Assembly (NCBI RefSeq): GCF_055900595.2
Contig: NZ_CM148325.1
Length of the DNA: 64,000 nucleotides
Reading direction: 5' to 3' (one strand)
Shown piece by piece: positions 38,122 through 58,922 of the stretch. Positions within the stretch are counted from its first letter, which is position 1. Every line of letters begins with the position of its first letter. The notes under the pieces were generated by a model that searched no databases, was not told where the DNA came from, and saw only the letters and a program-made list of their open reading frames with translations. Both the position numbers and the translations under genes were made by a program.

Positions 38122-38144
38122 ATTTAAATGGTGCGATAATAGGA
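38122..38144. repeat. Partial copy of the thrW 3' end: distal att repeat of the thrW-integrated element
   Basis: TTTAAATGGTGCGATAATAGGA matches TTTGAATGGTGCCGATAATAGGA at 58841-58863 (tRNA 3' end plus 6 bp) with 1 mismatch and 1 indel. Confidence 0.75.
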
Positions 38145-38205: not shown

Positions 38206-38227
38206 ATACCCCCAAAAGTACCCCCAT
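38206..38227. repeat. Putative integrase arm-type site (ATACCCCCAAAAGTACCCCCAT), left end of element
   Basis: 22-mer differs by 1 nt from the copy at 58713-58734 near the int start; each holds two TACCCCCA half-sites. Confidence 0.45.
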
Positions 38228-38345: not shown

Positions 38346-38705
38346 ATGAGAATGACCAGCCGTAAAAAAGAGATACTCAGTTATTTTGAGCCGGATAACC
38401 TAGAATGGGTGACAGGTGAGATTGGTGCGCCGCCGTTCGATGTGTCGGGCGTGGCCTACCTGCTTCATGGCATGGTGTCGTTCGATAAGCGCCACCAGCT
38501 CGAATCAACCCGGCGCACACTGGAAAGCATGGTTGCTGGTGGACTGCTTGAGCGGGTGACAGTGTATGAATCGCGTCAGGTACGGCGCGGCGGTGAGACT
38601 AACGCAACGGTCGTGCGCTACGGTTTACCCGGTCACTGCGCTGTTATGCGCGATACTGGCGGCGCTGATAACGCAATATCAGGCGAATACATGCGGGTCA
38701 GTTAA
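38346..38705 (+). CDS. Hypothetical protein (119 aa)
   Basis: ORF only; no recognisable motif. Confidence 0.35.
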   Translation: MRMTSRKKEILSYFEPDNLEWVTGEIGAPPFDVSGVAYLLHGMVSFDKRHQLESTRRTLESMVAGGLLERVTVYESRQVRRGGETNATVVRYGLPGHCAVMRDTGGADNAISGEYMRVS

Positions 38706-39240
38706 GAGCCTGCAATCTGTCGTTAATGTTGTTCAGGTCGTAAACCCGGCGTTCAATATCCAGCATCAGGAAATCGTGGATCTCGGCCTGTTCAGGATTA
38801 TCAGACTCTCTGGCCTGTAAGAGCAATTCATTGTAACCATGCAAACCACCCGAATTTTCCGCCGGGGTAGTGCCCTTCCCGCGCAAACAGCTAACAGGCT
38901 GGATACTGGTATCATGTGTTTGCTTCTCCAGCACAACAAGGCAATCCCACCAGTCGCCAAAGTCATACGTGTAAACCAGCTTGTCACCCTCATTCTGGAG
39001 CGCCGCCCATAGTGGCGTGATTGCCGCGTTACCCATGCTTTCATCCTCACCCCATACGCGATACTCGCTACCTGGATCACCTTTACGCCCTTTCTCGAAC
39101 ATATACAGGTGTTCGTCATTCCAGCCAAAAGCTAACTGGATCACGGCATGAAGTTTACTAAAGGGGATTTGCTCTGGAACCAGCACACGCCGCCATATTG
39201 GTGGTTTGCTGTCTCGGATGGTTATCTTTATCTGGTACAT
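38698..39240 (-). CDS. pRiA4b ORF-3-like family protein
   Basis: N-terminus MYQIKITIRDSKPPIWRRVLVPEQIPFSKLHAVIQLAFGWNDEHLYMF is the recalled hallmark of this family. Confidence 0.6.
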   Translation of the reverse strand: MYQIKITIRDSKPPIWRRVLVPEQIPFSKLHAVIQLAFGWNDEHLYMFEKGRKGDPGSEYRVWGEDESMGNAAITPLWAALQNEGDKLVYTYDFGDWWDCLVVLEKQTHDTSIQPVSCLRGKGTTPAENSGGLHGYNELLLQARESDNPEQAEIHDFLMLDIERRVYDLNNINDRLQALN

Positions 39241-39283
39241 GCGTCGTGAACCAATAGTGTACGTTTAGGTGGGTATTTTTCTG

Positions 39284-39718
39284 CTACTGACCAGGATAGA
39301 GCTGATGTGCCGGGTCAAGCCAGACAATATGGAATACATTACCGATGAAAAATCCATGTATGCGACCATATTCATTGCGCGATATGGCAAATTGATAAGG
39401 TGTATAACTCTGAAACTGTTCATTCAAATGCTGAAATCCCTTAGGTTCAGATGTAGTTTGCCAATCAATCGGATGTGACTTCAACGAACCACCGCGATCG
39501 GTGGTGAACTCTCGTTCAGTCATAGTGGAAAGGTCTTTGAGGCGGTCTAACACCTTGCAAAAATAAACAGGATTCTGAGCGCTGAAAGTAAATTTCTCAT
39601 GCGCCGCATCGATATACCGAAAAGAAAAGTTGATGGTCGTTATGCCTGAACCTGTTCCCCCAGGCACTATTTTTGTTTGCGAGGGTGCAATCTTCGACGC
39701 CCTGATTCTTTTCGCCAT
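39284..39718 (-). CDS. Hypothetical protein (144 aa) coupled to the Panacea-domain gene; candidate toxin/effector partner
   Basis: ATG 2 nt after the upstream stop with no SD of its own (translational coupling); no recognisable motif. Confidence 0.5.
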   Translation of the reverse strand: MAKRIRASKIAPSQTKIVPGGTGSGITTINFSFRYIDAAHEKFTFSAQNPVYFCKVLDRLKDLSTMTEREFTTDRGGSLKSHPIDWQTTSEPKGFQHLNEQFQSYTPYQFAISRNEYGRIHGFFIGNVFHIVWLDPAHQLYPGQ

Positions 39719-39720
39719 AT

Positions 39721-40176
39721 TTAGGAAGCCATCGAACGATAAAACTCAGCCGTTACACTTTTATCAATAACATTCTTGCACGGCGCATCTGATGGAACCC
39801 CTTCACGGGCCTCCAGCCACGGCTTTTCTTGGTGCGTCATCTGCTCCAGCTCATAAGCTGTATAACCGCCAAATACCTCATAGATTTCCTTTAGATGCTT
39901 TGACACATTCGCAGGTAACTCAGGGCAGGCAATCTCTTCGTCTATTGAGCGCCATTTGTAATCTGCAAATCTGGTATACAAATCTCTGGCTACAGGGCCA
40001 TGTACCCATGCTTCAAACTTGTCAGCAACCAGTTCTTCGCCATCATTCAGCGCCATGAACCAAGCATCAGCATAGAACACCATTTTTTGCAGTTTCAGCG
40101 GCGTCATAACATCCCCATGCTCTTGAGCAAAGCAAAGCAGGTAATCCGCTACGCTGTTAAGGGTTGTAACTGCCAT
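39721..40176 (-). CDS. Panacea-domain (DUF4065, SocA/GepA-like) protein; putative antitoxin
   Basis: AGGAG SD before ATG at 40176 (MAVTTLNSVADYLL...); LKLQKMVFYADAWFMALNDGEELV...FEAWVHGPV is characteristic of the domain. Longer ORF 39721-40407 is probably upstream read-through. Confidence 0.6.
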   Translation of the reverse strand: MAVTTLNSVADYLLCFAQEHGDVMTPLKLQKMVFYADAWFMALNDGEELVADKFEAWVHGPVARDLYTRFADYKWRSIDEEIACPELPANVSKHLKEIYEVFGGYTAYELEQMTHQEKPWLEAREGVPSDAPCKNVIDKSVTAEFYRSMAS

Positions 40177-40497
40177 TATCCAATCTCCTGCCGTATGTTT
40201 TCGTCTATAACTGTCCACTACCGTTAATAATCGCATATAACCACGGGTATTGCCCATCGTAAAATGCCATTTAAAGATTCTGCGTGATGGCTCACCATCC
40301 ACCGCGCAAGATACCCGGTGCGTTTGGCTGATAATCCGCAATTTGGTTGAAACCGTCCTGGAAACCTCAAGTTTGGAAACCAGCGACTTGCATCGTAGCT
40401 TTGCCATTCGGCGGTCATAGTTACTGCTATATCCCTTTATTGGCGAGACCTGCGAGAGGTTTTGTTGTTCGAATATATAAAGGTGAATAAAGGTAAT

Positions 40498-40910: not shown

Positions 40911-40942
40911 GCTACGCGCGCGCGTACTTGTCCCGAAATACC
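40911..40942. repeat. Copy 1 of a GC-palindrome motif (GCTACGCGCGCGCGTACTTGTCCCGAAAT)
   Basis: One of three same-orientation copies (with 42303 and 42589); core TACGCGCGCGTA is a perfect palindrome. Confidence 0.5.
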
Positions 40943-40980
40943 AGAAACCGCCAGCCAGAGGATGATTTCCCTCTGGTGGT

Positions 40981-41262: not shown

Positions 41263-41295
41263 TTCTGCCTCTCAGATTATATAGATAAGCAAAAA

Positions 41296-41420
41296 GGTGT
41301 TGGTTCAGTTGGTTCAGTTGGTTCAATTTGTAAAGATCGTTGTTTTTATTATGTTTTTTCTAAAATATTGAACCAACATCAACTCATTTTGAACCAACAC
41401 AGCCCAGCTCTGAACCAACA
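41296..41420. repeat. Iteron array I: 3 direct + 3 inverted GTTGGTTCA repeats around an AT-rich spacer (origin-like)
   Basis: GGTGTTGGTTCAGTTGGTTCAGTTGGTTCAATTTGTAAAG ... TTGAACCAAC, TTGAACCAACAC, TGAACCAACA; the first 40 nt are the exact reverse complement of 49541-49580. Confidence 0.7.
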
Positions 41421-42302: not shown

Positions 42303-42332
42303 GCTACGCGCGCGTACTTGTCGCAAAATATC
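42303..42332. repeat. Copy 2 of the GC-palindrome motif (GCTACGCGCGCGTACTTGTCGCAAAAT)
   Basis: Same orientation as copy 1; one CG unit shorter. Confidence 0.5.
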
Positions 42333-42588
42333 AGGCAAAGGCCAGATTCAGAACGTCGTGATAACCACCAGCACAACATGAGATGTCATGTAACGCGATT
42401 TATCACGTCAGATACATGTGATTGGTGTACCCGCATAAAACATTGTCATAGCGCGTCCTGTGCGCATATACGCCGATAATCAACACATCACCACCACTCT
42501 GTCTCATGTAGAGAACACTTTTATGGTATCCCCCGCCATCGTGTGCGTACTGGTCGGACGCAGTTGCAAAAAATTTTGCAACTGATAC

Positions 42589-42619
42589 CCCTCGCGCGCG
42601 TACTTGTCTCGAAATTGGT
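42589..42619. repeat. Copy 3 of the GC-palindrome motif (CTCGCGCGCGTACTTGTCTCGAAAT), preceded by a TTGCAAAAAATTTTGCAA palindrome
   Basis: Third same-orientation copy; separate 18-bp inverted repeat at 42564-42581. Confidence 0.5.
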
Positions 42620-42822
42620 GTTTTGCTGTGGCAGTGATATCAGAAAAATCTTCCTGTTTCACATAAAGCGGATATGCGCGTACTGTAACGGCCCCATCAA
42701 CTGGGAGCGGATTTGAGCCCCGAATGTGTAGGCAATGTCACTTAACGTTTGTCGCATACCTTCCAGAAAAAGCGATTCATGAATAATAGGGGCATGAATG
42801 CCCGGCGTACCGGGCTTATTAG

Positions 42823-43521
42823 TTAATTTGGTGCTTTAGGGTCAACATTAAAAGTTATATCACCTTCTGTATTTTTCCCGGCATAGCTAGCGGCTATTCT
42901 CGCCAACCCTTTGTAATCAGCAATTCCATCAGACTGTTGCGAGACGACTGAGCTACCAACTTTCCATAACATATTAATCTGCCGATTATTGAGATAAGCC
43001 TTGGCATCAAACGACTGGAGTATCACCCCTGCGCCGTAGAACGTGTCCGTCACAGTTGTGTTATACGCGCCAGTAATTCCATAAGTAGGCGTATAAACTG
43101 TTGTTGCCGTTCCAGTGGTATTAGCTGTACCGTAGCCACCACCATAACTATTGAACGTGGTGTTCGAGTTTCCGTACGTTGTTGCTGAGCTCACACCAGT
43201 TTGCCCGTATATTGGGATGGTTACATTACGAGTATTTGAAATGGCCCCGCTTCTCAAAAAGTTCAAGAGAATTACCTGGTCAGCCAATTTTTCATCTTTA
43301 ACTTGTGTATATCCTTGGCTTGATAAACTGGCGGCTACTACCGTAGCTATTTGAGTGTATTCAATCTGTTTGGTGTTCCAAAGTTCTTGGCTTGCGGGGA
43401 TGATCAAGAACTTCTTACCGACAGATTGCCCGGAAGATAAAGCATTGACCGTTACTAACGGTTTTTGTACGCATCCAGCCAATAATGACAGGGATAATAT
43501 TAAAAGAAGATTTTTAATCAT
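42823..43521 (-). CDS. Lipoprotein, Gly/Thr/Asn/Tyr-rich
   Basis: Signal peptide with lipobox (MIKNLLLILSLSLLAGC); low-complexity central region. Confidence 0.6.
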   Translation of the reverse strand: MIKNLLLILSLSLLAGCVQKPLVTVNALSSGQSVGKKFLIIPASQELWNTKQIEYTQIATVVAASLSSQGYTQVKDEKLADQVILLNFLRSGAISNTRNVTIPIYGQTGVSSATTYGNSNTTFNSYGGGYGTANTTGTATTVYTPTYGITGAYNTTVTDTFYGAGVILQSFDAKAYLNNRQINMLWKVGSSVVSQQSDGIADYKGLARIAASYAGKNTEGDITFNVDPKAPN

Positions 43522-43671: not shown

Positions 43672-46398
43672 CTATTCCCATTCGCTAACATCTTTCATGC
43701 CACTGAGGGTAGCTACAATCCCGGCCCTTGTCAGTTTCACGAATTCTTCAGCCCCAACGGCATCACGAATTGCTTTCATGGCAATTTTATTGGCCGAAAA
43801 TCGTTTCTCTGCTGCGGCGATCGCTGCTGGTGATGCCCCTGCGCGCACTGCTTTTGTAGCTTCCTGAACGGCTTTCTCTATCGCATATCGACCACTTCTT
43901 GTCGCCCCAATCTTAGCCACAGCATTTCTTAGCGCGCCACCAGCAACCAAACCACTAATCGAACCAATTACACCACCGCCAAAGCCTCCAGCGATCGCAC
44001 CTGACTGTTGAACACCGTTCATAATCACGCCGACGATCTTTGGAAGGCCTGAATCGAGCGTTTTGAGAGCCTCAGTTGTTCTTCCCGTGCGCTCTACGTA
44101 TCGCTGCGGTCTGGTACTGGCTTTAGCGAGTACACCGAACTCTTTCATCATTCTACCGAGATCTGGCGCATGACGACTGATGGCGTTTACATTCTGCTGG
44201 GTCATGAGCTTGGCAAAATACTGGATACCTGACTCTTCACCGATTCCTCCCTTCTCTCCCTGCGCCACAGCATGCTGAAGAATAGATGCTATTGCAGGTT
44301 GGCGTTCTGCTTCCGGCAGCGCGGAGATAAGACGGTGAAAAGCTCCCGTTCCAGTGTTTGCGGATGCCTTAAGCGTATCGGCACCTTTTCTTACCATAGC
44401 GTCTGATGCGAGATCTCGACCAAAAACAGATTCGGCATTTTGTTTGGCGATAATGTAACTTTTAGAGAGATCGTTAGCTTTCTGCCATTCTGTGAGGAAG
44501 TTTCCTTTTTCAGCCATGATGCGCATGTCATCAGTGATAGCTCTGCGCATTTCTCCGGCAATCCGGGCGGCATTGGCCTTACCTGCCCGGGTGTTTGCTT
44601 GTTCAGCATCAGCAAACTTAGCACGCCATGCCTTCATCCCGTCGAAGGTTATGCCGCCACCTTGGTTGTTGGCAGCCTGAAACTGTTTCATCTCCGGGCT
44701 GAGTGGAACATTGGCTGCTTTTTCTGCTTGGACGACAGCCATTCCATTACTCATTTTCATCCTTTCGCGTGGCATCGTGCTTCGCAGTTCTGCCCATGCC
44801 ATATTCTCTGCTGTTTTCATATCACTGAGGCTCGCGATGATGCGCTCTTTAATTGCTGCGCTTTTTTCTGATGCGCTTCCAGACTCAGCACCGAAATCAG
44901 ACAACTGCTTATTCAACTTTGAGGATATTTCATTGAAGGCCGTAAGGTGAGCATCCTGAACATTCCCAGGAGTTGATGCCAGAACACCTTCTGCTTGGGC
45001 AATTCCACGACTACCTGAGCGCATTCCAGGCGTCAGGGTGTTGATATTAATACCAGTGATTTTCGCCGCCTTAGCGACATCATCTCTGACGTTTGATGCC
45101 TGCGATGCGATATGCTCTCGGCCTACGGCAGAACGCGCTGCTTTCGATACATCATTGGCGGTTTCCAGAGTATTTGCTGCCCCTAACACATGGCCTGATT
45201 GATTTGTATTACTCCGCAATACATCTCGCATTACGTCACTGGCTGTCTGTCCGCTCTTTATTAAAGCGCGTGCTCCTAGCGATCCTGCTAGGCCAATACC
45301 TGTCTCTTTTGCTAGGTCTTCTGGGCTGATCTGCCCGTTCTTTTGGGCGTTCACCAATGTACCTGGCAGGTTTTCTGCCAACATACTAGCCACCTTTGTG
45401 GCCGCACGTTCAGCACGTGGAGCGTTGGCAACTGAAGAAGCTGCGGTAGCTGCCTTTCCTGCACCTAATCCTGTAATAAGGTAAGGTGCTAGCTGCTCAC
45501 CAGCCTGCGCGTATGGATCTGTAGGTTGGTCTACTGGGCGAAAGACAGGTGATATGGGCGTGTATGTGCCATCACCCACACCAAGCTTCTGAGCTGCCCA
45601 TGCTCCGGCTGATTGCGCCGCATTGACTACCCCCACGCCTGCGTCCATTACATCAAACGGTATATTAGCAATCCCTCTGGCCATCTGCTCTGGCGCAGCT
45701 TTCAGTCCTGGCGAAAGATATTCCATCTCAGGATTAAGGTTAGACTTGGCTACTTGCTGCTGCGGTTCCCCGGCATTTTCATCGGCGAGAAACTGAGCTC
45801 TTTTCTGCTCCCATGAACTGGCTGTTGGTAGTCCTGCTTCTATGTTCTTAAATTGCTGACGTTTTGCTTCCCATGCAGAAATATCTCCCACCTGAGAGAT
45901 TTCTTTATCAAGCTCTGAGTAGTCAGGCTGCTGAAGATTGCGATGTTGACTGGTTTGTGCAAACTGCAAGATTTCACTGTCATCAGGGATTATTCCGGCA
46001 TCTGCAAATTTACTTACGTAATTAGCCGTTTCATCTGGCAGTGTAGATTTACCGTTTCTGACGGCATTAATACGAGCATAGCCAGAATTATACCCAGCCA
46101 ATGCCATACCTATATCACCAAATCGCTTCATTCCTTTATTGAGATGGTTTGCTGCGATATCCATTTGCTTTTCAAATGGCAGTGAGCGCGGATCTGTTCC
46201 ACGATAACCAGCATCACTCATTACTGAGGGCATCAGTTGAGCAAATCCTCTAGCTCCTTTCGGTGACTCGGCACTTCCGTTACCACTAGATTCATTGCCA
46301 ACTAATGTTTCCATCGTCCCTGATGGGAAACCATATTTTTCATCGAGATGACGGGAATAGGCTTTCTGTTTTTCTGTCAGTTGTGCCATCATTGCCAT
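43672..46398 (-). CDS. Large protein with N-terminal lytic transglycosylase (SLT) domain; podovirus gp16-like internal virion/ejection protein
   Basis: 908 aa; SLT motifs (GARGFAQLMPSV ... ALAGYNSGYARI) then long helical region and C-terminal hydrophobic segment. Confidence 0.65.
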   Translation of the reverse strand: MAMMAQLTEKQKAYSRHLDEKYGFPSGTMETLVGNESSGNGSAESPKGARGFAQLMPSVMSDAGYRGTDPRSLPFEKQMDIAANHLNKGMKRFGDIGMALAGYNSGYARINAVRNGKSTLPDETANYVSKFADAGIIPDDSEILQFAQTSQHRNLQQPDYSELDKEISQVGDISAWEAKRQQFKNIEAGLPTASSWEQKRAQFLADENAGEPQQQVAKSNLNPEMEYLSPGLKAAPEQMARGIANIPFDVMDAGVGVVNAAQSAGAWAAQKLGVGDGTYTPISPVFRPVDQPTDPYAQAGEQLAPYLITGLGAGKAATAASSVANAPRAERAATKVASMLAENLPGTLVNAQKNGQISPEDLAKETGIGLAGSLGARALIKSGQTASDVMRDVLRSNTNQSGHVLGAANTLETANDVSKAARSAVGREHIASQASNVRDDVAKAAKITGININTLTPGMRSGSRGIAQAEGVLASTPGNVQDAHLTAFNEISSKLNKQLSDFGAESGSASEKSAAIKERIIASLSDMKTAENMAWAELRSTMPRERMKMSNGMAVVQAEKAANVPLSPEMKQFQAANNQGGGITFDGMKAWRAKFADAEQANTRAGKANAARIAGEMRRAITDDMRIMAEKGNFLTEWQKANDLSKSYIIAKQNAESVFGRDLASDAMVRKGADTLKASANTGTGAFHRLISALPEAERQPAIASILQHAVAQGEKGGIGEESGIQYFAKLMTQQNVNAISRHAPDLGRMMKEFGVLAKASTRPQRYVERTGRTTEALKTLDSGLPKIVGVIMNGVQQSGAIAGGFGGGVIGSISGLVAGGALRNAVAKIGATRSGRYAIEKAVQEATKAVRAGASPAAIAAAEKRFSANKIAMKAIRDAVGAEEFVKLTRAGIVATLSGMKDVSEWE

Positions 46399-47708
46399 CC
46401 CTTAAGTTTTGCCTGATAGTAACTTTCCGGCAGATAGCCATGTGCGGTCACATAATCCTTAACCAGTGAAGGATCCTGCAACAGCATTTTGGTATCAGTT
46501 TCTTCGTCCTTAGATTTGGTTACAGGAATACCGAGCCCGGCAATCTGTCGTTTCTGCATTCGAATAATTACGTCCTGCGCTTTATTCAACTCTCGCAAAA
46601 ATGCCTCATTGCTGGTTGCTGACTTAATGCCATTTTGAGATTGCATAAGGGCAGCCCTTTCCCCTTCGGTTGGGTTAGAGCCAAAAGTCCCTTTGAGGCT
46701 AGGCAGAATAACCTTTAGGTTGTATTCATCAGCTTTGGCGCGTAGGCTTCGTGTGTCTTCTGCTACATCAGGAAGGAATCCAAACCCCAGCGTCAGGGGG
46801 TTATAGTTCTGCGAGCGGGTAACGGCCGAAGGATGTTTCCCTACAATTCCCGCCAGTTCATGACCCACTTCAAGCGCAGAGTTCAAGGAGTCGATGTTAC
46901 CTGCAACAGTATTAATTTTATCGTTCATCTTCTCCACTTTCGCCTGCTGTATCTTGCTCAGTTCAGCATTGAGCTTGTCTCTCTCGATGTCATTTTGAGC
47001 ACGTCCAAGTCGTGCTTTCAGAACCATTTCTCTCGTGCGTAGTTGGTTATCGGATAGGACTTTGAACTGCTCCATATCGAGACGTCGATTACCCTGTTCC
47101 GCATTAACCTGAGCATTATATGCGGATGTATCTGCGTTCTGCTGTGCAATGCTCTGCCCTTGCTGCTTCTCTTGAACACTAAAGTAACTATTTGGATCAG
47201 CATGGAGGTGGATGAGGTCAGTGATTCTGTTGAATTCCTGTGGGTCATTCTGCCAAGACTGATAAACCTCTTCAGCAGGAAGACCAAATCGCTGTAATAC
47301 TGGATTTGCCTGCTGAATGGCCTTCTGCATGGTCAGTGGATCTCCAGTTTGTGACGCAAGACGCAGATTCATGGCAGCGTCAGCGGTCTGTCGATTTTGC
47401 TCAGCATCAATGAATCCCATCTGTTTTTGAGAATCAGCCATAAACTGGGGATACTGGGCCATTAACTTCTGCACGCCAACACGATCATTATTAGCTACCG
47501 CACTACCCAACCGTGCCTGATATTCTTTTAACTGCTGGGAAATTTGCGCCTGCTGATTAATCTCAGCAACGCCTCTTAGCCCCTGTAGCGCCATTAAACC
47601 TACGTTTGGCTGCTGCTGATACTGCACAGGCTGAGGAACGGAAGAACGAGGAGCATTATCATTTTGCGGTGCCATGCTAGGCAGCCCGCCAAGTTGCCAT
47701 GTCGCCAT
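46389..47708 (-). CDS. Gln-rich coiled-coil protein (439 aa); gp15-like by size and position
   Basis: Overlaps neighbours by 1-10 bp; no enzymatic motif. Confidence 0.5.
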   Translation of the reverse strand: MATWQLGGLPSMAPQNDNAPRSSVPQPVQYQQQPNVGLMALQGLRGVAEINQQAQISQQLKEYQARLGSAVANNDRVGVQKLMAQYPQFMADSQKQMGFIDAEQNRQTADAAMNLRLASQTGDPLTMQKAIQQANPVLQRFGLPAEEVYQSWQNDPQEFNRITDLIHLHADPNSYFSVQEKQQGQSIAQQNADTSAYNAQVNAEQGNRRLDMEQFKVLSDNQLRTREMVLKARLGRAQNDIERDKLNAELSKIQQAKVEKMNDKINTVAGNIDSLNSALEVGHELAGIVGKHPSAVTRSQNYNPLTLGFGFLPDVAEDTRSLRAKADEYNLKVILPSLKGTFGSNPTEGERAALMQSQNGIKSATSNEAFLRELNKAQDVIIRMQKRQIAGLGIPVTKSKDEETDTKMLLQDPSLVKDYVTAHGYLPESYYQAKLKGWQ

Positions 47709-48385
47709 TAGAATCCAAGCCCCCCAACAAGACCAATAAGCCCACCACCAATAGCGCCGGCCGCAGTTCCTATTCCAGGAACAACGGAACCAAGTTGCGC
47801 ACCCGCTAAAGCGCCTGATGCTGCCCCACCAATACCACGCGCAAGACTGGATGGCTGCTGCGCCTGACCTGCACGAATAGCGCCAAGCCCCTGCAAGAGT
47901 TGTCCGGTATTATTGGCGTAGTTTTGCCCTGCCGTTGCCTGCCCTGATGCCGCATTCATCCCGACATTTAGCAGGTTTCCATAATTTTGCATTTGCCCAC
48001 TGAGCCAATTGTTATAAAGCATGGGCGCAATGGAAGATAACTGGTTACTGGTAGCTGTTGAGCCAAGCCCCCCGGTAGCTTCTGCTGAGACAAGGTTCTG
48101 ATAACGGGCCTGATCTGCCTGTGTTTTATATAAACCAGAACCAAAGAAATCATTCGCGGCTTTATTCTGCCCTTCCAGAGTCATCAGTCCTTGTAGTTGT
48201 TGTAAAGCAGGCAATCCGACTTCTGCATACGGCTTGAGATTATTCATCACCGTATTCCACTGCTCGCGCTGCAAATCAATTGCCTGCTGCTGGGCCTTCG
48301 CCTGAGCTTTAGAGGCACCACCATCACCGCCTTTTTCGTATACGGCACGATTGAGATGTTTATGAGCTATGTGGGTAATTAACAT
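47708..48385 (-). CDS. Protein with C-terminal glycine-zipper membrane segment (225 aa); gp14-like
   Basis: C-terminus GIGGAASGALAGAQLGSVVPGIGTAAGAIGGGLIGLVGGLGF. Confidence 0.5.
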   Translation of the reverse strand: MLITHIAHKHLNRAVYEKGGDGGASKAQAKAQQQAIDLQREQWNTVMNNLKPYAEVGLPALQQLQGLMTLEGQNKAANDFFGSGLYKTQADQARYQNLVSAEATGGLGSTATSNQLSSIAPMLYNNWLSGQMQNYGNLLNVGMNAASGQATAGQNYANNTGQLLQGLGAIRAGQAQQPSSLARGIGGAASGALAGAQLGSVVPGIGTAAGAIGGGLIGLVGGLGF

Positions 48386-48840
48386 TCGCTGAATTCCTTA
48401 TATTGTTGCCGAGTTAACTGATAAAGCGTTACGCCGACGGGTTTACCACATCTGATATAAGCATCATCAAGGTGACCAACACGGGTAGCGCCAAGCAAAC
48501 GGATAATTGCCCGTCCGTATTTGGTGGTGTCAGGAACCATGGTAATGCTGTTAAGGAATGGTGAGTTTTCGAGAAGCCATTTGCAGAATAATCGATGCCC
48601 TTGCAGTGCATATTCACCACGGAATCCGGGGTCGTACACCGCATGGCATTCAACAACGCTATGCCAGAAGTTACGCACTTCATGAACGCCAGCCAGCACT
48701 AATCCTTCGTAGATGCCGAGATATACCGCATCAGGCTTGATGTAGTACGTGTGCCCCGGCTCAACAATATTTTCGGTATTGCCTGGCTCGTTAAGAAAGG
48801 CCTGTAATCGCACAGGGTTATCAATAAATTTTAGTTCCAT
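48379..48840 (-). CDS. Hypothetical protein (153 aa); first gene of the four-gene module (gp13-like position)
   Basis: ORF with coupled start; no recognisable motif. Confidence 0.5.
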   Translation of the reverse strand: MELKFIDNPVRLQAFLNEPGNTENIVEPGHTYYIKPDAVYLGIYEGLVLAGVHEVRNFWHSVVECHAVYDPGFRGEYALQGHRLFCKWLLENSPFLNSITMVPDTTKYGRAIIRLLGATRVGHLDDAYIRCGKPVGVTLYQLTRQQYKEFSEC

Positions 48841-48850
48841 GCGATGCCAT

Positions 48851-49018
48851 CCATTTTCACATACAGCCTGCCAGCGCCTTATCTATTAACCCTCGTGCAA
48901 TTTCATGCAGAGTTGGCGCTACTCCAATTCCTGATTTTTTACGCTGCTCTTCCTGAATTTTCTTTATCGCTTCCATTTGCTTCTCACTTATCAATACCGG
49001 CTTTACTGAAATAGCCAT
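48851..49018 (-). CDS. Small protein (55 aa), possible ribbon-helix-helix DNA-binding protein
   Basis: AGGGGG SD then ATG; MAISVKPVLISEKQMEAIKKIQEEQRKKSGIGVAPTLHEIARGLIDKALAGCM. Not in the ORF track because under 60 aa. Confidence 0.35.
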
Positions 49019-49465
49019 AACGCCCCCTTAGAACTGTATAAAACAACAGTTATTATAGTTTCACAAATCGCAATATTCATCATCGTAATTGCAAAATATG
49101 AAACAAATAGCACAAAAAAATGCCACCGCTCAGTAGCTGGTGGCATCGTTCTGTGTGTCAGGTTTTGACAGGTTTTTTATGGACTCTAAAAACTATATTT
49201 ATGGTGTCGCATTACTCTTCACGGCAGGCGCTTTTCAGTTCTGCCCTTGCTTCTGGCTCCATTGGTAATTTGATTCGCGATCAGCTATGCGGATGGTTTG
49301 CTGAACAGGCATAACAACTTCTCAGAGGCTGTTTTTTGAACTACGAAAATTTCGTAGTGCTCACTTTCAAAAACGTCACGCCCTTGTACACAGGATTTTA
49401 CGAAAGTCTCGTAAAACACTCTCTGATGCCAGCCAGGTGTTGTGCGCATCAATTCAGTCACATTG

Positions 49466-49580
49466 TGTTGGTTCAAAATACCGTGTTGTTGGTTCAGTGT
49501 TGGTTCAATAAAAAGAATAAAATCCTTATAAAACAATACTCTTTACAAATTGAACCAACTGAACCAACTGAACCAACACC
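49466..49580. repeat. Iteron array II: 3 direct + 3 inverted GTTGGTTCA repeats around an AT-rich spacer, next to the primase gene
   Basis: Same architecture as array I; 49541-49580 is the exact reverse complement of 41296-41335. Confidence 0.7.
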
Positions 49581-49602: not shown

Positions 49603-52362
49603 TCATTCTTCAGATGAGTTATAATCTCCTGGCTGGTAATTGAGTACATAAACGTTTATTTGTCGTCCCTGAATACGTGGTGATTTTCTTTGGTATCCAC
49701 GACCGCTGTTTGGTGGGGTTAGCATCCCGGCTTTTTTCAACACTTCAGCAAACTGTTTTGCGTTGAAACCACATGCGATCTCCTTTTCAAATGTGGCCGG
49801 GAATGTGTAGAAAATCATTGGGCTTTCGTCATGTTCTCCACGCTGACGGTATCCGGCTAAATCTTTGATGGGCAAATCTGCCGGGCTGTATGGAAATGGT
49901 GCAAAACGGCTAAGCCCATAGGCATTAAGAAATGCCTCCGTTTGTTCAATAATCTGCTGATGTTCTTTGTTACCTGTGCCGAACTCGCGCAACCATGCGT
50001 TATAGCTGTGCTGTATCGCATCACGGCATGTCTGAGCATCCCAGCCTGTTACAACCTCGCCTAACAGCAATGCGGCCTCCAGAATGGCAAATCGCGCGGC
50101 TACACGGTGAACCTGCTCACCATAATCGGATGGGATCAGGCTTCTCCATCTGCTTTCGCAATCACGAACGGTTTTAATAGCCTGTTGCTGGTGGTCTGCC
50201 AGCCATTTAATCCACTCACGCCCGGACGCGCCGTGGTGATGCTGGTAAGCGTCTTTCAGTGCGTCTGCGTGCTGTTTTCCGTTCTGGTAATCGTGAAAGC
50301 GTACTGCTTTACTCAACGGAATATTCAGCAGTCGCACCAGTTGCCCGGCTTTGGTTTTTCGCCCGGAAGTAGCGATAAATGTTTCTAAATCCATTTCTCC
50401 GGTGCTGATTGCCACTGTACGCCAACGTTTTAGATCCCGGTTTCCACCATCTTTAGCGCCTTGCAGTTTCCCTACACCGTTAAATAACGCATAGGCAGAC
50501 TGTGAAACGCTGACAGGATCAGCGCCCTGACCAACTTCATCAAGCGGCATTAGTCCGTCATTGTGGGCGGCGGCCTCATTTGCCAGCCCCAGCGCGGTTC
50601 CGTACCACGTCAGCCGCAGTAAATCAGGGTTGCCGTATAAGCTGCTCGCCACGTTTGCCGTGGTGGTCTTACCTGCGCTCGACTGCTCATAGAAATGAAT
50701 GCCGAACCCGTCAGCGCCCACCAGCCCAATCAATGGCGCTGCCAGTGCTGCGCCGATCCCGGTCATCATTGAATAGTTACCAAAGGCCAGACGCGCCACG
50801 TTATCACGCCAGCTTTTCGCGCTCCCTGAGACGGTATATCCGGCTGCGGCTGAGCTTCTCCCGCTGAACAGCACAGGATTTTCAGGTGTTCCGATGATTT
50901 CCCCATCAGGCATGATGTACGCTCCGCATTGCCAGCCAGTGGCATGAGCAACACGCCACAATTCACGAGAGCCACTGCGTTGTAGCCAGTCTGCCAGTAT
51001 TGCTCTGAGGCTGCTTTTGGTCGTGACATTTACCCCACCAGCTTTAAGTGTGCGCCATCCTTCACGTTCACCAATATCAGCCAGTGGAATGGCAGCGGTT
51101 GTCGGCGTTTCAGAACCAAACGACAGCCAGCGAAGAATGAGATACTGGTCTTTATCGTCTCTGCCAGTACCGATAACGCTTAACGGAGAACATAACCAGC
51201 TTTCGTTATTGATGATTTCTCCACTCTGGCTGTCAGCTCTCGGAGATACCCAATAAATACCATCCTCGCGGCTTTCTATTCTTGGTTTCAGTGGGTCGGT
51301 ATCCATAACCTTAAAATCGCTTCCCTCAATGGTCTGTGGCTCCTGTTTCACGCCATTACCCTGTGGTTGGTACATTGACTTATTGAACGCTTCTGTGGCG
51401 CATTTAATGCCGTGTTTTTGGTGGTAATCATTCCAGTCTGCTTTGTGATCTGTCGGGGGTAATGCCACCCATCCAGAAACAGATAAAGCTGCTTTTTCTG
51501 CTGCTATTCTCCCCGTGTTTTGTCTTCCTTCGCTGTGGTCGTTATCCGCAGCAATGATGATTTGTGCTGAAGGATATTTATCCCGCAGTACCTGGGCGAC
51601 ATATAACAGGTTCCCGGCATCAATCGCCGCCACTGTCAGCGCCTCTGGACGAATTAAATGGGCAGATAATGCCGTTGCCAGCCCTTCTGCGATTAAGATG
51701 CTCTGTGTTGTTTCTGGTGCGTTTATGGCGTGATATGCCCCCCGCTTTGCTGAACCTGTCAGGAGTCTTTTTTCACCATGTGAGGTAATAGTCTGTGCTG
51801 CTGTGACTGCGCCGGATTTATCCACCAGCGCCAGCAACAGAGATCCATCGGGCAACACGGGGAATGTAAAATCACCTACCCCTTTCGCAACCAGATAATC
51901 AGATTTGCCGTTTACAGCCTTTCTGCGCATGTCATCAAACTGACGGGAAAACGTATCCCGTCTTTGTTGTTCGTCCTTCTCTGCCCTTTTCAGGCGCTCC
52001 TGTTCGCGTCGCTGGCGCTCGGTTTCCAGTTGTTCCCGTTTCTGGCTGGTGGCTTCTGGTGTTTCCGTTGTCCGGTAATCAATACCCAGAACATCAGCGG
52101 CAAGAAGCGCCGCCTCTGTTGTGTCGCAGTTATTTACGCGTTTAATTAAATCCAGCCCATCACCAGCGCCGCACTGATTACAGATGAAGCTACCGCGCCC
52201 GTTGTCATCGAACCGGAATCGATCTTTGCCCCCACATGCAGGGCAGGGAGCATGACGGCGCGGAGAGTCAGGGACATTTATGTTCAGGCAGCCCAGCACA
52301 TGAGGCCAGTTGTTTTCAGACGCACTGATAACCTGACGGATAAGATCAATGTTTCGCATCAC
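49603..52362 (-). CDS. Primase-helicase (P4 alpha-like: Zn-binding primase + TOPRIM + P-loop NTPase)
   Basis: 919 aa; N-terminal zinc ribbon (CPACGGKDRFRFDD...CNQCGAGDGLDLI), TOPRIM-like acidic region (IIIAADNDHSEGRQNTG), Walker A-like SSAGKTTT. Confidence 0.85.
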   Translation of the reverse strand: MMRNIDLIRQVISASENNWPHVLGCLNINVPDSPRRHAPCPACGGKDRFRFDDNGRGSFICNQCGAGDGLDLIKRVNNCDTTEAALLAADVLGIDYRTTETPEATSQKREQLETERQRREQERLKRAEKDEQQRRDTFSRQFDDMRRKAVNGKSDYLVAKGVGDFTFPVLPDGSLLLALVDKSGAVTAAQTITSHGEKRLLTGSAKRGAYHAINAPETTQSILIAEGLATALSAHLIRPEALTVAAIDAGNLLYVAQVLRDKYPSAQIIIAADNDHSEGRQNTGRIAAEKAALSVSGWVALPPTDHKADWNDYHQKHGIKCATEAFNKSMYQPQGNGVKQEPQTIEGSDFKVMDTDPLKPRIESREDGIYWVSPRADSQSGEIINNESWLCSPLSVIGTGRDDKDQYLILRWLSFGSETPTTAAIPLADIGEREGWRTLKAGGVNVTTKSSLRAILADWLQRSGSRELWRVAHATGWQCGAYIMPDGEIIGTPENPVLFSGRSSAAAGYTVSGSAKSWRDNVARLAFGNYSMMTGIGAALAAPLIGLVGADGFGIHFYEQSSAGKTTTANVASSLYGNPDLLRLTWYGTALGLANEAAAHNDGLMPLDEVGQGADPVSVSQSAYALFNGVGKLQGAKDGGNRDLKRWRTVAISTGEMDLETFIATSGRKTKAGQLVRLLNIPLSKAVRFHDYQNGKQHADALKDAYQHHHGASGREWIKWLADHQQQAIKTVRDCESRWRSLIPSDYGEQVHRVAARFAILEAALLLGEVVTGWDAQTCRDAIQHSYNAWLREFGTGNKEHQQIIEQTEAFLNAYGLSRFAPFPYSPADLPIKDLAGYRQRGEHDESPMIFYTFPATFEKEIACGFNAKQFAEVLKKAGMLTPPNSGRGYQRKSPRIQGRQINVYVLNYQPGDYNSSEE

Positions 52363-54329: not shown

Positions 54330-55389
54330 TGGTTGCCCCCGTTTTTCCTGGCATTTCGCCACCTTCCAGCAGGAAATGAACGTCACGAACGGCGAGATCC
54401 AATATCGCGAGTAACGCCTTCAGTCTTTCGTCTCGTGAGGGAGAGTTGCTCACCAGAATGTCGTTAATCACTTCTGTCAGTGTGATGATCTGGCTTGTGC
54501 GTTCGAGGGGATCCATATGCACATCGTAGGTTTTAATCATGTGCCACCTCCATGCGGATACGACCAGCAAAAAAGCAGACGTGATCGCGCACCAGAGAAC
54601 GGCGAGCATCGCGTTCAGACTCGGCAGCAATATGATGAATTTTGGCGGTAATTGTCGGGCAATCGCGGCGAACTGCGGCGATAATCCAGATAAATTGCGG
54701 TTTTTGGGTAGGGGTAGTAGCCAGCATGTGGCAGCCTCCTTGTACTGGGAATTCTTCCCACCACCGGAGCTGCGAAACTCGCTGGTGGTGGACTGAACAG
54801 AGTTCGCAGTACCGGCGTACAAGGAAACCGGCCAGCCTTTCGGCTGCCCTGTCCAGCCCACCATAATTTTGCAAGCGACGCGGATTATAACCACATCACT
54901 GAAAAAAGTGTGAGTCTGGCTAACGGCACAAAAAAAGACGCTCGGCGCGTCATGTGTCGCCTCGTACATTTCCGGGCTGCGAAACCCGGCACCCGTTTTA
55001 TGAGGTGCCTTATAACCATAAACCGTGTTGCCGCATAACGGCAAGCTCTTTTTTATGGACTCCGAAAACTCACTATTGGAAGAACCAGAAGCACAGTACA
55101 TCGCGCTCATTTCGTTAACGTCACGCGCGTGGACGAATGTTTTTGTGGAGTCACTACACGAGCGGAAGACATCATCTACGACCAGAAATTTTCTGGCGCA
55201 GCCGCTGACCTTCTCAAGGCTAATATCATCGCCCGAGATTTCTGGTATGGTTAAGGCATCCGTTCCGGCCACCAGCAAATGATAAACTTTGCTTGTATCT
55301 GCTGTATTAATGCCTGACTTTGCCGTCATATTTCTGGATTTTGGCGACATACCAGCCAGTGAAAATGTCTTCTTCTGGATGGGTATCAT
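54322..55389 (-). CDS. Uncertain ORF (355 aa); may be two genes, with an internal start at 54540 behind a strong GGAGGTG SD
   Basis: Continuous frame, but upstream two-thirds is low-complexity and a well-placed SD+ATG at 54540 suggests a separate 73-aa product ([19 protein letters not shown]...). Confidence 0.3.
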
Positions 55390-56403: not shown

Positions 56404-56835
56404 TTAGGCGGCGTTAAACGCGTCCGGGTAGAGTTTCAGAATGTCGGCAATTTCCTGCTGAGAAAGTCCGTTGTGATCATTTATGTTCGCAAGATGGTTA
56501 ACATGAGTGATCACTTTCAGAACATCACCACGGCAGGAGAAACGGTAGCGAAGGTGTGTTCCGATACCATCAGGATTCTTTTCGTCGATACGCTCCAGAG
56601 TGATTCCAAGCTGGCGTTCTAACTCTGTTGCATAGTTACGACCAGAAGACAGACGGCAGTAGCGAAGAATGTCATTTTCTGTCCATCCCTCTATACCAGT
56701 ACGCAGCATATAGACTCTGGCACGATGCTTTTTCGGTGTGCGCTTTGGTGCTTGAAGGGATTTTGTAAGGGGCGTAACATCAGATACACGAATATCTGAA
56801 TTAGCCGCCTGTAATGGGCGGTTTTTCTTTTCCAT
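56404..56835 (-). CDS. Hypothetical protein (143 aa)
   Basis: ORF between alpA and the antirepressor-like gene; its stop overlaps the alpA start. Confidence 0.4.
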   Translation of the reverse strand: MEKKNRPLQAANSDIRVSDVTPLTKSLQAPKRTPKKHRARVYMLRTGIEGWTENDILRYCRLSSGRNYATELERQLGITLERIDEKNPDGIGTHLRYRFSCRGDVLKVITHVNHLANINDHNGLSQQEIADILKLYPDAFNAA

Positions 56836-57038
56836 CAGGCCACCTCGTCTCTAGATTCTAATATACACTTCTCAATCCATTCATCTATTTCAGACTCAAC
56901 AAAAGCAATTGCCCGACTTCCAATTTTTACCTGTTTAGGGAACCTCCCCTGACTAATAAGACGATAAATCCATGCTTTGCTATAACCAGTTCGCCTTTGA
57001 ACTTCAGAGAGACGAATTAATGAATTGTAATTAGCCAT
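56835..57038 (-). CDS. alpA: AlpA-family phage transcriptional regulator / excisionase-like protein
   Basis: 67 aa; LIRLSEVQRRTGYSKAWIYRLISQGRFPKQVKIGSRAIAFVESEIDEWI is the AlpA HTH signature. Confidence 0.85.
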   Translation of the reverse strand: MANYNSLIRLSEVQRRTGYSKAWIYRLISQGRFPKQVKIGSRAIAFVESEIDEWIEKCILESRDEVA

Positions 57039-57466: not shown

Positions 57467-58681
57467 TCATGCGTGTTTTTCAAACACCATATGCACCACA
57501 TTTCCGCCATGCTCGAGAGAATCCATATAGTCGGCATACCATTGAAGCATCTCCCGCCTTCCATCCAGATATTGCGCATGGTTGTATGTGCCACGAATTG
57601 AGTTCTTATCAACGTGAGCGAGCTGCGTTTCTATCCACGCGGTGTTATAGCCCTGCTCATGCAAAATCGTACTCATAGTGTGCCGGAACCCATGACCAGT
57701 TACACGTCCAGCGTAGCCAATGCGCTTAAACACTTGGTTTATGCTGGCCTCGCTCATTGTTTTCCTTGGATCATTGCGCCCGGGAAACATAAGAGGGTAA
57801 TTGCCTGTTATTTCTCTAATCTTCCCAATAAGCGAAAGAGCCTGCTCAGACAATGGCACAATATGAGGCCGCCGCATTTTCATACGTGAAGCGGGTATCT
57901 CCCAGATAGCCTTGTTGAAATCAATTTCATCCCATAATGCGCCACGTAGTTCGCCAGTCCGCAAGCCGGTGATAATCAGTAGACGAGCCGCCATAACAAC
58001 CAATGCGCTTCCTGAGTAACTGGACAATGCCTTGAAAAAATCAGGTAATTCTTTGGCTGTAAGGAAAGGGTAATGATTAGATTCATGGCCTTGCATCGCG
58101 CTAGTAAGGTCTGGTGCAGGGTTATACTCTGCGCGACCAGTGACTATTGCATAGCGGAAAACTTCCCCGCACCGTTGCCTCACTTTTTTGGCTTTTTCTG
58201 TAGCACCGCGCCCCTCGATGCGACGCAGCACATTCAGAAGTTCAAGTGGTTTGATTTCGGCGATGGGTTTTTTGCCAATGTAAGGGAACACATCTTTGTT
58301 GAAGGCTTCGAGGATGTCTGAAGCATAACCAGCAGACCATTTTTTTAATTTGCTGCTGTGCCACTCAAGGGCAATATCTTTGAAGGTGTTGTTTAACTGC
58401 GTTTCCCGGGCAATCTTTTCCTCTCGTTTCGCTTCCATCGGATCGATACCACCAGCGATACCTCTTTTCGCATCTTCACGTTTTGCCCGAGCATCGGCTA
58501 GAGTAACCTCAGGATAAACACCTAGTGCCAATAGCTTCTCTTTACCAGCTACACGATATTTAAGTCGCCAGTATTTACCTCCATTAGGTTTTACCAAGAG
58601 ATACAAACCGCCACCATCGGCCAGCTTGTAAGCCTTCTCTTTTGGCTTGGCTGTGTCTATTTGACGGGCATTGAGTTTCAC
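57467..58681 (-). CDS. int: P4-type tyrosine integrase
   Basis: 404 aa; N-terminal MKLNARQIDTAKPKEKAYKLADGGGLYLLVKPNGGKYWRLKYR; catalytic region HGFRHT...(Y); directly downstream of thrW, same orientation. Confidence 0.9.
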   Translation of the reverse strand: MKLNARQIDTAKPKEKAYKLADGGGLYLLVKPNGGKYWRLKYRVAGKEKLLALGVYPEVTLADARAKREDAKRGIAGGIDPMEAKREEKIARETQLNNTFKDIALEWHSSKLKKWSAGYASDILEAFNKDVFPYIGKKPIAEIKPLELLNVLRRIEGRGATEKAKKVRQRCGEVFRYAIVTGRAEYNPAPDLTSAMQGHESNHYPFLTAKELPDFFKALSSYSGSALVVMAARLLIITGLRTGELRGALWDEIDFNKAIWEIPASRMKMRRPHIVPLSEQALSLIGKIREITGNYPLMFPGRNDPRKTMSEASINQVFKRIGYAGRVTGHGFRHTMSTILHEQGYNTAWIETQLAHVDKNSIRGTYNHAQYLDGRREMLQWYADYMDSLEHGGNVVHMVFEKHA

Positions 58682-58712: not shown

Positions 58713-58734
58713 ATACCCCCATAAGTACCCCCAT
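58713..58734. repeat. Putative integrase arm-type site (ATACCCCCATAAGTACCCCCAT), int-proximal end
   Basis: Direct repeat of 38206-38227 (1 mismatch); an inverted GTACCCCCAA copy at 58683-58692. Confidence 0.45.
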
Positions 58735-58846: not shown

Positions 58847-58922
58847 TGGTGCCGATAATAGGAGTCGAACCTACGACCTTCGCATTACGAATGCGCTGCT
58901 CTACCAACTGAGCTATATCGGC
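58847..58922 (-). tRNA. thrW: tRNA-Thr (anticodon CGU), thrW; integration site
   Basis: 76-nt minus-strand sequence GCCGATATAGCTCAGTTGGTAGAGCAGCGCATTCGTAATGCG...GGCACCA folds as a cloverleaf with CGT anticodon and CCA end. Confidence 0.9.

Follow-up and report, generated by a model that had tools for sequence, protein, structure and literature searches.

Why would an island with no capsid, terminase or tail genes encode DNA ejection proteins? The question is raised by a 64,000-nt stretch of contig NZ_CM148325.1 (assembly GCF_055900595.2), referred to here as the window, in which four minus-strand genes lie within a 20,719-bp island at the tRNA-Thr gene thrW. By sequence comparison, these genes form a complete P22-type ejection cassette, gp14-gp7-gp20-gp16, in P22 order, and the island is a relative of the published phage satellite EcCIMP1. 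The reading that we favor, at a probability of roughly 0.6, is that the satellite equips particles assembled by a helper phage with a DNA-delivery channel of its own, that is, a satellite-encoded ejectosome.

The four open reading frames (ORFs), which span 48840-43672, were found in the ORF list exactly where a preliminary description of the stretch had placed them, with the sizes of 153, 225, 439 and 908 amino acids (aa) that it had given. Consecutive genes overlap at their stops and starts by 7, 1 and 10 nt, an arrangement from which translational coupling is predicted. The first protein (48379..48840, minus strand like the other three) is a homolog of the P22 gene 14 product, matching phrog_651 (E=1e-66) and the 'head morphogenesis' family DUF2824 (Pfam, E=1.7e-61). 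It is 84% identical to Kapi1_055 of the P22-like phage Kapi1, the helper of EcCIMP1, and 23% identical to P22 gp14. The second (47708..48385) is a gp7-like ejection protein, with matches to Pfam P22_gp7 over aa 16-223 (E=8.5e-73) and to the 'DNA ejection' family phrog_598 (E=3e-70), and is 58% identical to Kapi1_056 and 56% identical to P22 gp7. Its C-terminal membrane segment, which the preliminary description had called a glycine zipper, is a Gly/Ala-rich hydrophobic tail that alignment shows to be kept in the gp7 of both P22 and Kapi1. The bacteriocin-like role that the preliminary description had offered as an alternative for this protein was rejected in view of its full-length P22_gp7 family membership. 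The third protein (46389..47708) is gp20-like and represents an allele that we call type A. Pfam Inj_translocase ('of phage P22 injectosome') is matched at aa 34-196 (E=1.2e-21) and phrog_917/2534 at E=4e-44, with likeness to P22 and Kapi1 gp20 confined to the N-terminal ~190-300 aa, at 26-28% identity.

The fourth and largest protein (43672..46398) is a fusion of an SLT domain (aa ~17-119) with a gp16-type body (aa ~189-864). The body matches the 'DNA transfer protein' family phrog_770 over aa 189-864 (E=5e-121). The 908-aa protein is 47-52% identical to the gp16 of phages Dewey/Huey, CUS-3, epsilon34 and HK620: for CUS-3, epsilon34 and HK620 the identity is 48-52%, and Dewey/Huey gp16 aligns at 97% coverage, SLT domain included, with 47% identity. 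At the N-terminus, Pfam SLT is matched at aa 17-119 (E=3.8e-12), as is phrog_342, a T7-gp16-type family labeled 'internal virion protein with endolysin domain' (E=2.5e-16). The SLT motifs are present, namely the catalytic E36-S37, QLM at 54 and YNSG at 103, so that the protein is predicted to have, as the preliminary description had proposed, an N-terminal lytic transglycosylase, and its catalytic Glu-Ser is intact. Over the four proteins the PHROG and Pfam E-values run from 1e-21 to 1e-121, far beyond chance, and the profile searches place all four in P22-type phage families and none in a non-phage family; the earlier assignment to podovirus ejection or internal virion proteins is thereby upheld. 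A phmmer search against PDB sequences returned no relative for the gp7-, gp20- or gp16-like proteins.

What kind of element carries this cassette? The island extends over 38135-58863, where the gene for tRNA-Thr(CGU) (58847-58922, minus strand) adjoins proA/proB. Its ends are att repeats with the 10-nt core GATAATAGGA, one at 38135..38144 (attL, plus strand) and one inside the tRNA gene at 58854..58863 (attR, plus strand). These are the only two copies in the window, against a chance expectation of 0.04, and the core is the reverse complement of the published EcCIMP1 core, TCCTATTATC (PMC11773190). Read along the minus strand, the island encodes an integrase, an AlpA-type helix-turn-helix protein, a 143-aa ORF, an AntA/AntB antirepressor, DUF4222, isrK/C4, an Ash-family protein, small ORFs and a TOPRIM+DUF927 primase. 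Then, 3' of the primase, come iteron-like repeats, a hairpin, a -10 element, a 53-aa ORF, the four genes, a 232-aa lipoprotein and cargo. The tyrosine integrase (57467..58681, minus strand) matches phrog_1 (E=1e-77), and the primase (49603..52362, minus strand), immediately upstream of the module, matches phrog_1139 (E=6e-179). The AlpA-type regulator (56835..57038, minus strand), which is excisionase-like and has a weak 'excise' domain match, is WP_000035054, the same protein as in EcCIMP1, where AlpA is the master regulator (PMC11773190). In the other ORFs of the island, PHROG searches and the RefSeq annotation of near-identical copies yielded no family of capsid, terminase, portal, tail or lysis proteins, in agreement with the preliminary description. 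This is the layout of a phage-inducible chromosomal island (PICI): about 20 kb or less, att repeats, int followed by alpA and then by primase plus origin, and no capsid, tail or lysis genes. The preliminary description had spoken of a P4-like element; a satellite it is, but not strictly a P4-like one, as no Sid, Psu or Delta PHROG family was found among the island ORFs (no search was aimed at a cos site).

The closest published relative, EcCIMP1, is a 19,963-bp PICI of E. coli MP1 (GenBank OR778291) integrated at the tRNA-Thr gene between proA and yagU (Pick, Stadel & Raivio, ISME J 2025, PMC11773190). It excises only in the presence of Kapi1, requires alpA and int to do so, and is transduced by Kapi1 at low frequency, about 5e3 particles/ml (PMC11773190). 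Of the window element, 89.6% aligns with EcCIMP1, a 16.6-kb core being 98.9% identical at the nucleotide level, and the four module proteins are 98-99.7% identical to their EcCIMP1 counterparts. Common to the two are the integration site next to proA, the att core, the int-alpA-ant-ash-primase backbone, the four genes and the 232-aa protein. They differ in size (19,963 bp vs. 20,719 bp) and in cargo, with a SocA/Panacea-like cassette and ORFs of 151 aa and 73 aa replacing EcCIMP1 alpA_1 in the window. These likenesses assign the window element to the EcCIMP1 family of PICI satellites and suggest that its excision and transfer would likewise depend on a helper, as seen experimentally for EcCIMP1. 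Since the element and its genes have already been published, the window copy adds a member to a known family. The EcCIMP1 paper labels the module genes 'DNA transfer'/DUF2824 and puts them forward as candidate packaging genes, and the words 'ejection' and 'transglycosylase' are absent from its text (PMC11773190). What is new beyond that paper is the recognition of these genes as a complete, universally conserved, allele-swapping ejection cassette, accompanied in some lineages by a SieA homolog. The preliminary description had left two options, a satellite supplying its own ejection proteins or a heavily reduced temperate podovirus. The second is contradicted by the PICI layout, by the helper-dependent excision and transfer of EcCIMP1 and by a layout that is kept in about 357 genomes, and the evidence favors the first.

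How general is the association between satellite and ejection genes? Among 5,426 complete E. coli genomes, the primase, counted at at least 80% coverage, was present in 357 (about 6.6%). A junction from primase to gp14 was found in 239 genomes and one from primase to gp20, without gp14 and gp7, in 120, the two junction queries having ~79% of their sequence in common, just under the 80% coverage cut-off that divides the classes. Set against 357 genomes with the primase, the junction counts (239 + 120 = 359) imply that in practically all satellites with this primase the ejection genes come directly after it, a universality that comes from totals rather than from a per-genome cross-tabulation. 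The type-A four-gene module, as in the window, is intact in 71 genomes, and a second gp20/gp16 pair, type B, occurs in 301. In the 120 genomes without gp14 and gp7, the satellite is a 16.8-kb variant with gp20 and gp16 only after the primase (e.g. E. coli WL7562, record L007, 5400-8971). Strain AR_0085 has an identical module in an island at yicC/dinD with a different integrase.

Two gp20/gp16 sets are thus found on the same backbone: type A, of 439 and 908 aa with the SLT domain, and type B, of 473/488 and 701 aa without it. The gp16 proteins of the two types have no detectable similarity, and the gp20 proteins are alike over the N-terminal ~190 aa only. The ratio of nonsynonymous to synonymous substitution rates (dN/dS, Nei-Gojobori method) between the window and MP1 is 0.12 for gp7, 0.11 for gp20 and 0.08 for gp16, with 0.15 for the primase; for the type-B pair it is 0.30 (gp20) and 0.14 (gp16). 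The module is under purifying selection at the level of the primase and is a core component of the satellite that selection maintains. The slot that follows gp16, on the other hand, varies among satellites in the manner of a moron slot. In the type-B satellite of E. coli 03_3013 it holds a 204-aa SieA homolog (record L006, 5002-5616, plus strand) on the strand opposite to gp16, as in P22. This protein matches phrog_7745 (E=4e-4), is 29% identical to P22 SieA over 108 aa (pairwise E=8e-8) and ends in the RYPGEA motif that P22 SieA also has; the corresponding slot in the window is filled by the unrelated 232-aa lipoprotein. When one genome per species was scanned, 13 of the 14 loci with gp7 homologs had the canonical context of a P22-like late operon, and the single locus in a satellite context came from Escherichia sp.; the scan used two peptide patterns, which makes absence elsewhere weak evidence.

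What could a satellite do with such proteins? In P22, it is by way of the scaffold that gp7, gp20 and gp16 enter procapsids, the N-terminal regions of gp7 and gp20 making the contact, and the three proteins leave the virion first and form a trans-envelope conduit (PMC8402733). Complete foreign gp7/gp20/gp16 sets function in P22, where gp7 can be swapped alone and gp20 and gp16 must be cognate, and the injection block imposed by SieA is escaped by changes in gp16/gp20 or by the HK620 set (PMC10461980). Between satellite and Kapi1, identity is 84% for gp14 and 58% for gp7, but 26% for gp20 (N-terminus only) and 25% for gp16. The parts that would have to fit the helper, gp14, gp7 and the gp20 N-terminus, stay helper-like, which fits the P22 pattern. 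The gp20/gp16 pair, which would contact the recipient envelope and its exclusion proteins, is specific to the satellite, exchanged as a pair and the minimal set retained.

In the proposed course of events, induction of a P22-like helper such as Kapi1 would allow the satellite to excise, with the same dependence on AlpA and Int as EcCIMP1, and to replicate from its own primase and iterons. The operon of the 53-aa ORF, gp14, gp7, gp20 and gp16 would be transcribed from the satellite's own promoter, and the ejection proteins would enter helper-built procapsids via their conserved N-terminal regions. Satellite DNA would be packaged by headful as a concatemer; with family members of 16.8-20.7 kb and a P22-type headful of ~43 kb (PMC8402733), a particle should hold at least 2 copies with terminal redundancy. 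A size rule of exactly half a headful was also considered and is ruled out by the range within the family. In the next cell, gp7, gp20 and gp16 would be ejected and build the trans-envelope conduit, with the SLT domain cutting murein. Homology, gene order, selection, universality within the family and the satellite behavior of the near-identical EcCIMP1 are established; that the proteins are built into particles, mediate the entry of satellite DNA and bring a selective advantage is proposed.

Since the helper already makes ejection proteins, the selected benefit of a second set would most likely be a different delivery specificity. Because gp20 and gp16 must be cognate and set the sensitivity to SieA, satellite alleles could give satellite particles access to cells, lysogens among them, from which particles of the helper type are shut out. 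Possible benefits include evasion of SieA-like blocks, a wider range of recipients and penetration of murein via the SLT domain. A narrower version, in which the gp20/gp16 pair, with or without SLT, is swapped among satellites to counter SieA-type blocks and enter helper-excluding cells, lysogens that carry future helpers included, some satellites adding a SieA of their own, is put forward tentatively, and we would not bet on it.

Several points weigh against a satellite-encoded ejectosome. The presence of the satellite proteins in particles, or a requirement for them in transfer, is inferred, and the need for a satellite set is not obvious when the helper supplies its own. The transduction of EcCIMP1 by Kapi1 is inefficient, so that the natural helper may be another phage. 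No sieA is recognizable in Kapi1, which makes the rationale of SieA evasion conjectural for this pair. The role of P22 gp14 as an assembly factor is background in line with 'head morphogenesis' labels in databases, and the literature searched gave no functional statement that would confirm it. Finally, the authors of the EcCIMP1 study proposed a role in packaging instead (PMC11773190).

Of the alternatives to an ejectosome, helper interference survives best, although we consider it doubtful. Satellite gp20 and gp16 would be co-assembled with those of the helper, and the mismatch would make helper virions non-infectious, lowering helper output to the benefit of satellite or host. Interference is a common trait of satellites, and the satellite alleles of gp20 and gp16 are only 25-26% identical to those of the helper. 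P22 hybrids with non-cognate gp16 or gp20 do make non-infectious virion-like particles (PMC10461980, Table 4). Yet Kapi1 titers from induced lysogens are unchanged by EcCIMP1 (PMC11773190, Fig. 4B), and a mixed pool would still give each protein type its cognate partner.

The block, ejection genes together with the lipoprotein or SieA homolog behind them, might instead have been captured from a P22-like phage mainly for an exclusion gene that protects the host, with the ejection genes riding along or acting as decoys against incoming phage. EcCIMP1 adds superinfection immunity to Kapi1 lysogens (PMC11773190), and type-B satellites have their SieA homolog in the syntenic position of P22, within the variable, moron-like slot. 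What makes this improbable is that the ejection genes are universal and as constrained as the primase, whereas the gene downstream of them varies. Judging from their N-terminal sequences, moreover, the ejection proteins have no signal peptides, so that proteins expressed by a resident satellite would be unlikely to reach the periplasm.

The role favored by Pick et al., in packaging or capsid morphogenesis, would have the module turn the helper's packaging or assembly to satellite DNA instead of acting in ejection. It draws on the position of the module, packaging genes of PICIs being usually found after the primase, on the 'head morphogenesis' label of gp14 homologs and on the lack of any other recognizable packaging gene in the element. 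We nonetheless find it quite improbable: DNA packaging goes on in P22 particles without gp7, gp16 and gp20, and the amount packaged is even larger, so that no packaging function is known for these families (PMC8402733), and 120 satellites do without gp14. A decaying remnant, be it a reduced P22-like prophage or a dead fragment recombined into an island, with no current function, would suit the degraded elements of the adjacent thrW region, which include an integrase fragment and pseudogenes in MP1, and the integration of P22 itself at thrW, but is very improbable given four ORFs intact in 71 genomes, ejection genes in about 359 satellites, dN/dS of about 0.1, the same module with a different integrase and site, and a near-identical EcCIMP1 that functions as a helper-dependent satellite.

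How, then, would an ejectosome operon be expressed, and what surrounds it? The first gene of the module's transcription unit is the 53-aa ORF (48857..49018, minus strand), which has no family match and is common to all satellite variants, as WP_001018524 in the copies and as a 57-aa version in E. coli WL7562 (L007). Upstream of it, the terminator scan found a terminator-like hairpin (49137-49122, minus strand) that closes the primase/ori unit. Reading of the sequence gives, at 49057-49052 (minus strand), a perfect -10 TATAAT whose -35 is poor; this is probably the promoter of the module, and one that depends on an activator. A late promoter or qut common to module and helper was ruled out, since the region upstream of the module has no DNA similarity to Kapi1. 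A 22-nt repeat, TTTTTTATGGACTC(T/C)(A/G)AAAACT, is found at 49173-49194, upstream of the ejection-gene operon, and again at 55049-55070, upstream of the isrK/C4 region, and could link the two units as an operator or promoter element that they share. Directly after the primase stop, at 49467..49577, the iteron-like repeats GTTGGTTCA and TGAACCAAC occur three times each and probably serve as the replication origin of the satellite; a partial inverted copy of them lies near perC, at 41292-41399.

On the other side of the module, directly downstream of gp16, is the gene for the 232-aa predicted lipoprotein (42823..43521, minus strand; lipobox LAGC). At both integration sites the type-A module is followed by an identical copy of this protein, WP_000594596, and between the window and MP1 its gene has 0 nonsynonymous and 4 synonymous differences. 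It gave no PHROG, PADLOC or NCBIfam match and no tblastn match in 50,697 phage records; a defense annotation for it and for other cargo found no support in these databases and phage records and was dropped. The lipoprotein is a candidate exclusion factor and may account for the superinfection immunity described for EcCIMP1. The cargo beyond it includes PerC and a SocA/Panacea-like pair. The part that differs from EcCIMP1 (38698-40407, minus strand) consists of a SocA/Panacea-domain antitoxin-like protein (39721-40407), a 144-aa partner (39284-39718) and a pRiA4b ORF-3 family protein (38698-39240), and is likely a toxin-antitoxin or defense cassette.

The same region holds a family of 28-nt direct repeats, D1, with the core CGCGCGCGTACTTGTC, at 40917-40944, 42307-42334 and 42593-42620. 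They are kept in every satellite variant fetched, and the second copy sits at the breakpoint (42298) from which the cargo differs between all variants. The repeats match 17 of 18 nt inside the small-terminase (TerS) gene of Kapi1 (record L004, 18875-18892), a score that was reached by 2-4 of 200 shuffles and is statistically weak. On the minus, coding, strand they read FRDKYA(R/K)A, like 'FRDKYAKA' of TerS. A search of the phage database found no match to the repeats, and the literature searched does not define an Sf6-type pac site. D1 could be a pac-site mimic, a relic of a TerS gene or a recombination anchor; we regard it as a lead, not a finding.

Elsewhere in the island, a C4 antisense RNA and an isrK RNA were detected with Rfam at 54781..55008 (54781-54868 and 54931-55008, minus strand), with scores of 81.1 bits (E=8e-15) for C4 and 69 bits (E=4e-13) for isrK and a weak a1/b1 target match; the pair forms a P1 immI-like RNA switch between the antirepressor and ash/icd-like genes. 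A 22-nt direct repeat, ATACCCCCA(A/T)AAGTACCCCCAT, at 38206-38227 and 58713-58734, lies ~60-120 bp inside the att ends and is a candidate for integrase arm-type sites. Outside attL, a neighboring island carries a 999-aa reverse transcriptase-nitrilase defense gene (33950-36949, plus strand; PADLOC RT_UG5-nitrilase/DRT, E=8e-288).

How does the window cassette compare with known systems? In P22 (NC_002371, 8911-13313), gene 14 (151 aa) is followed by genes 7 (229 aa), 20 (471 aa) and 16 (609 aa), and then by sieA on the other strand. P22 and the homologs in Sf6, HK620, CUS-3, epsilon34, Kapi1, Dewey and Huey have the same four families, order and coupling as the window, and the likeness to P22 extends to the Gly-rich C-terminal tail of gp7, to the 'MATWQ' N-terminus of gp20 and, in type-B satellites only, to the retained opposite-strand sieA downstream. 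The setting is different: in P22-like phages the cassette follows the portal, coat, gp4, gp10 and needle genes, whereas in the satellite it follows primase and origin, and the window cassette is not in the late-operon context of a P22-like phage. A second difference is the SLT domain on the satellite gp16, which is missing from the gp16 of P22, HK620 and CUS-3. The SLT-gp16 fusion is also found in the P22-like phages Dewey and Huey, and SLT-like N-termini occur on the gp16 of Yersinia proxima and Tatumella prophages; these counterexamples correct the statement in a review that P22-like phages lack a gp16 transglycosylase domain (PMC8954989).

The preliminary description had compared the four genes with T7 gp13-gp14-gp15-gp16. 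In T7, gp14 is a small membrane protein, gp15 forms the tunnel in the periplasm, and gp16, large and located in the inner membrane, has an SLT transglycosylase at its N-terminus; the three have been equated with P22 gp7, gp20 and gp16 by synteny and role (PMC8954989). The parallel holds as a functional analogy, with sizes rising along the operon, the SLT domain on the largest protein and the phrog_342 match. Homology to the T7 set was rejected, as PHROG and Pfam place all four in P22-type families: the SLT domain is the sole family match to T7, and the 225-aa and 439-aa proteins and the body of the 908-aa protein have no T7-type matches.

We know of no satellite described as encoding ejection proteins, and the literature searched yielded neither such a description nor any link between satellites and ejection proteins. 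If the proposed reading is true, this would be the first satellite-encoded ejectosome, it would replace the packaging guess of the EcCIMP1 paper (PMC11773190), and it would offer a natural system for the determinants of specificity between ejection proteins and SieA. The interchangeable ejection-protein sets and the SieA homolog would form a natural panel for studying how a P22-type conduit is built and blocked, and if the proteins are used, the entry step would be a further layer of the conflict among helper, satellite and host. What phage satellites are known to hijack is capsid size, packaging specificity or tails. P4 (Sid, Psu), the Staphylococcus aureus pathogenicity islands (SaPIs; CpmA/B, TerS) and the capsid-forming PICIs are, like the window element, helper-dependent islands that contribute some virion-associated proteins, but what they encode are capsid-size, decoration, packaging or capsid proteins, unlike the ejection set carried here.

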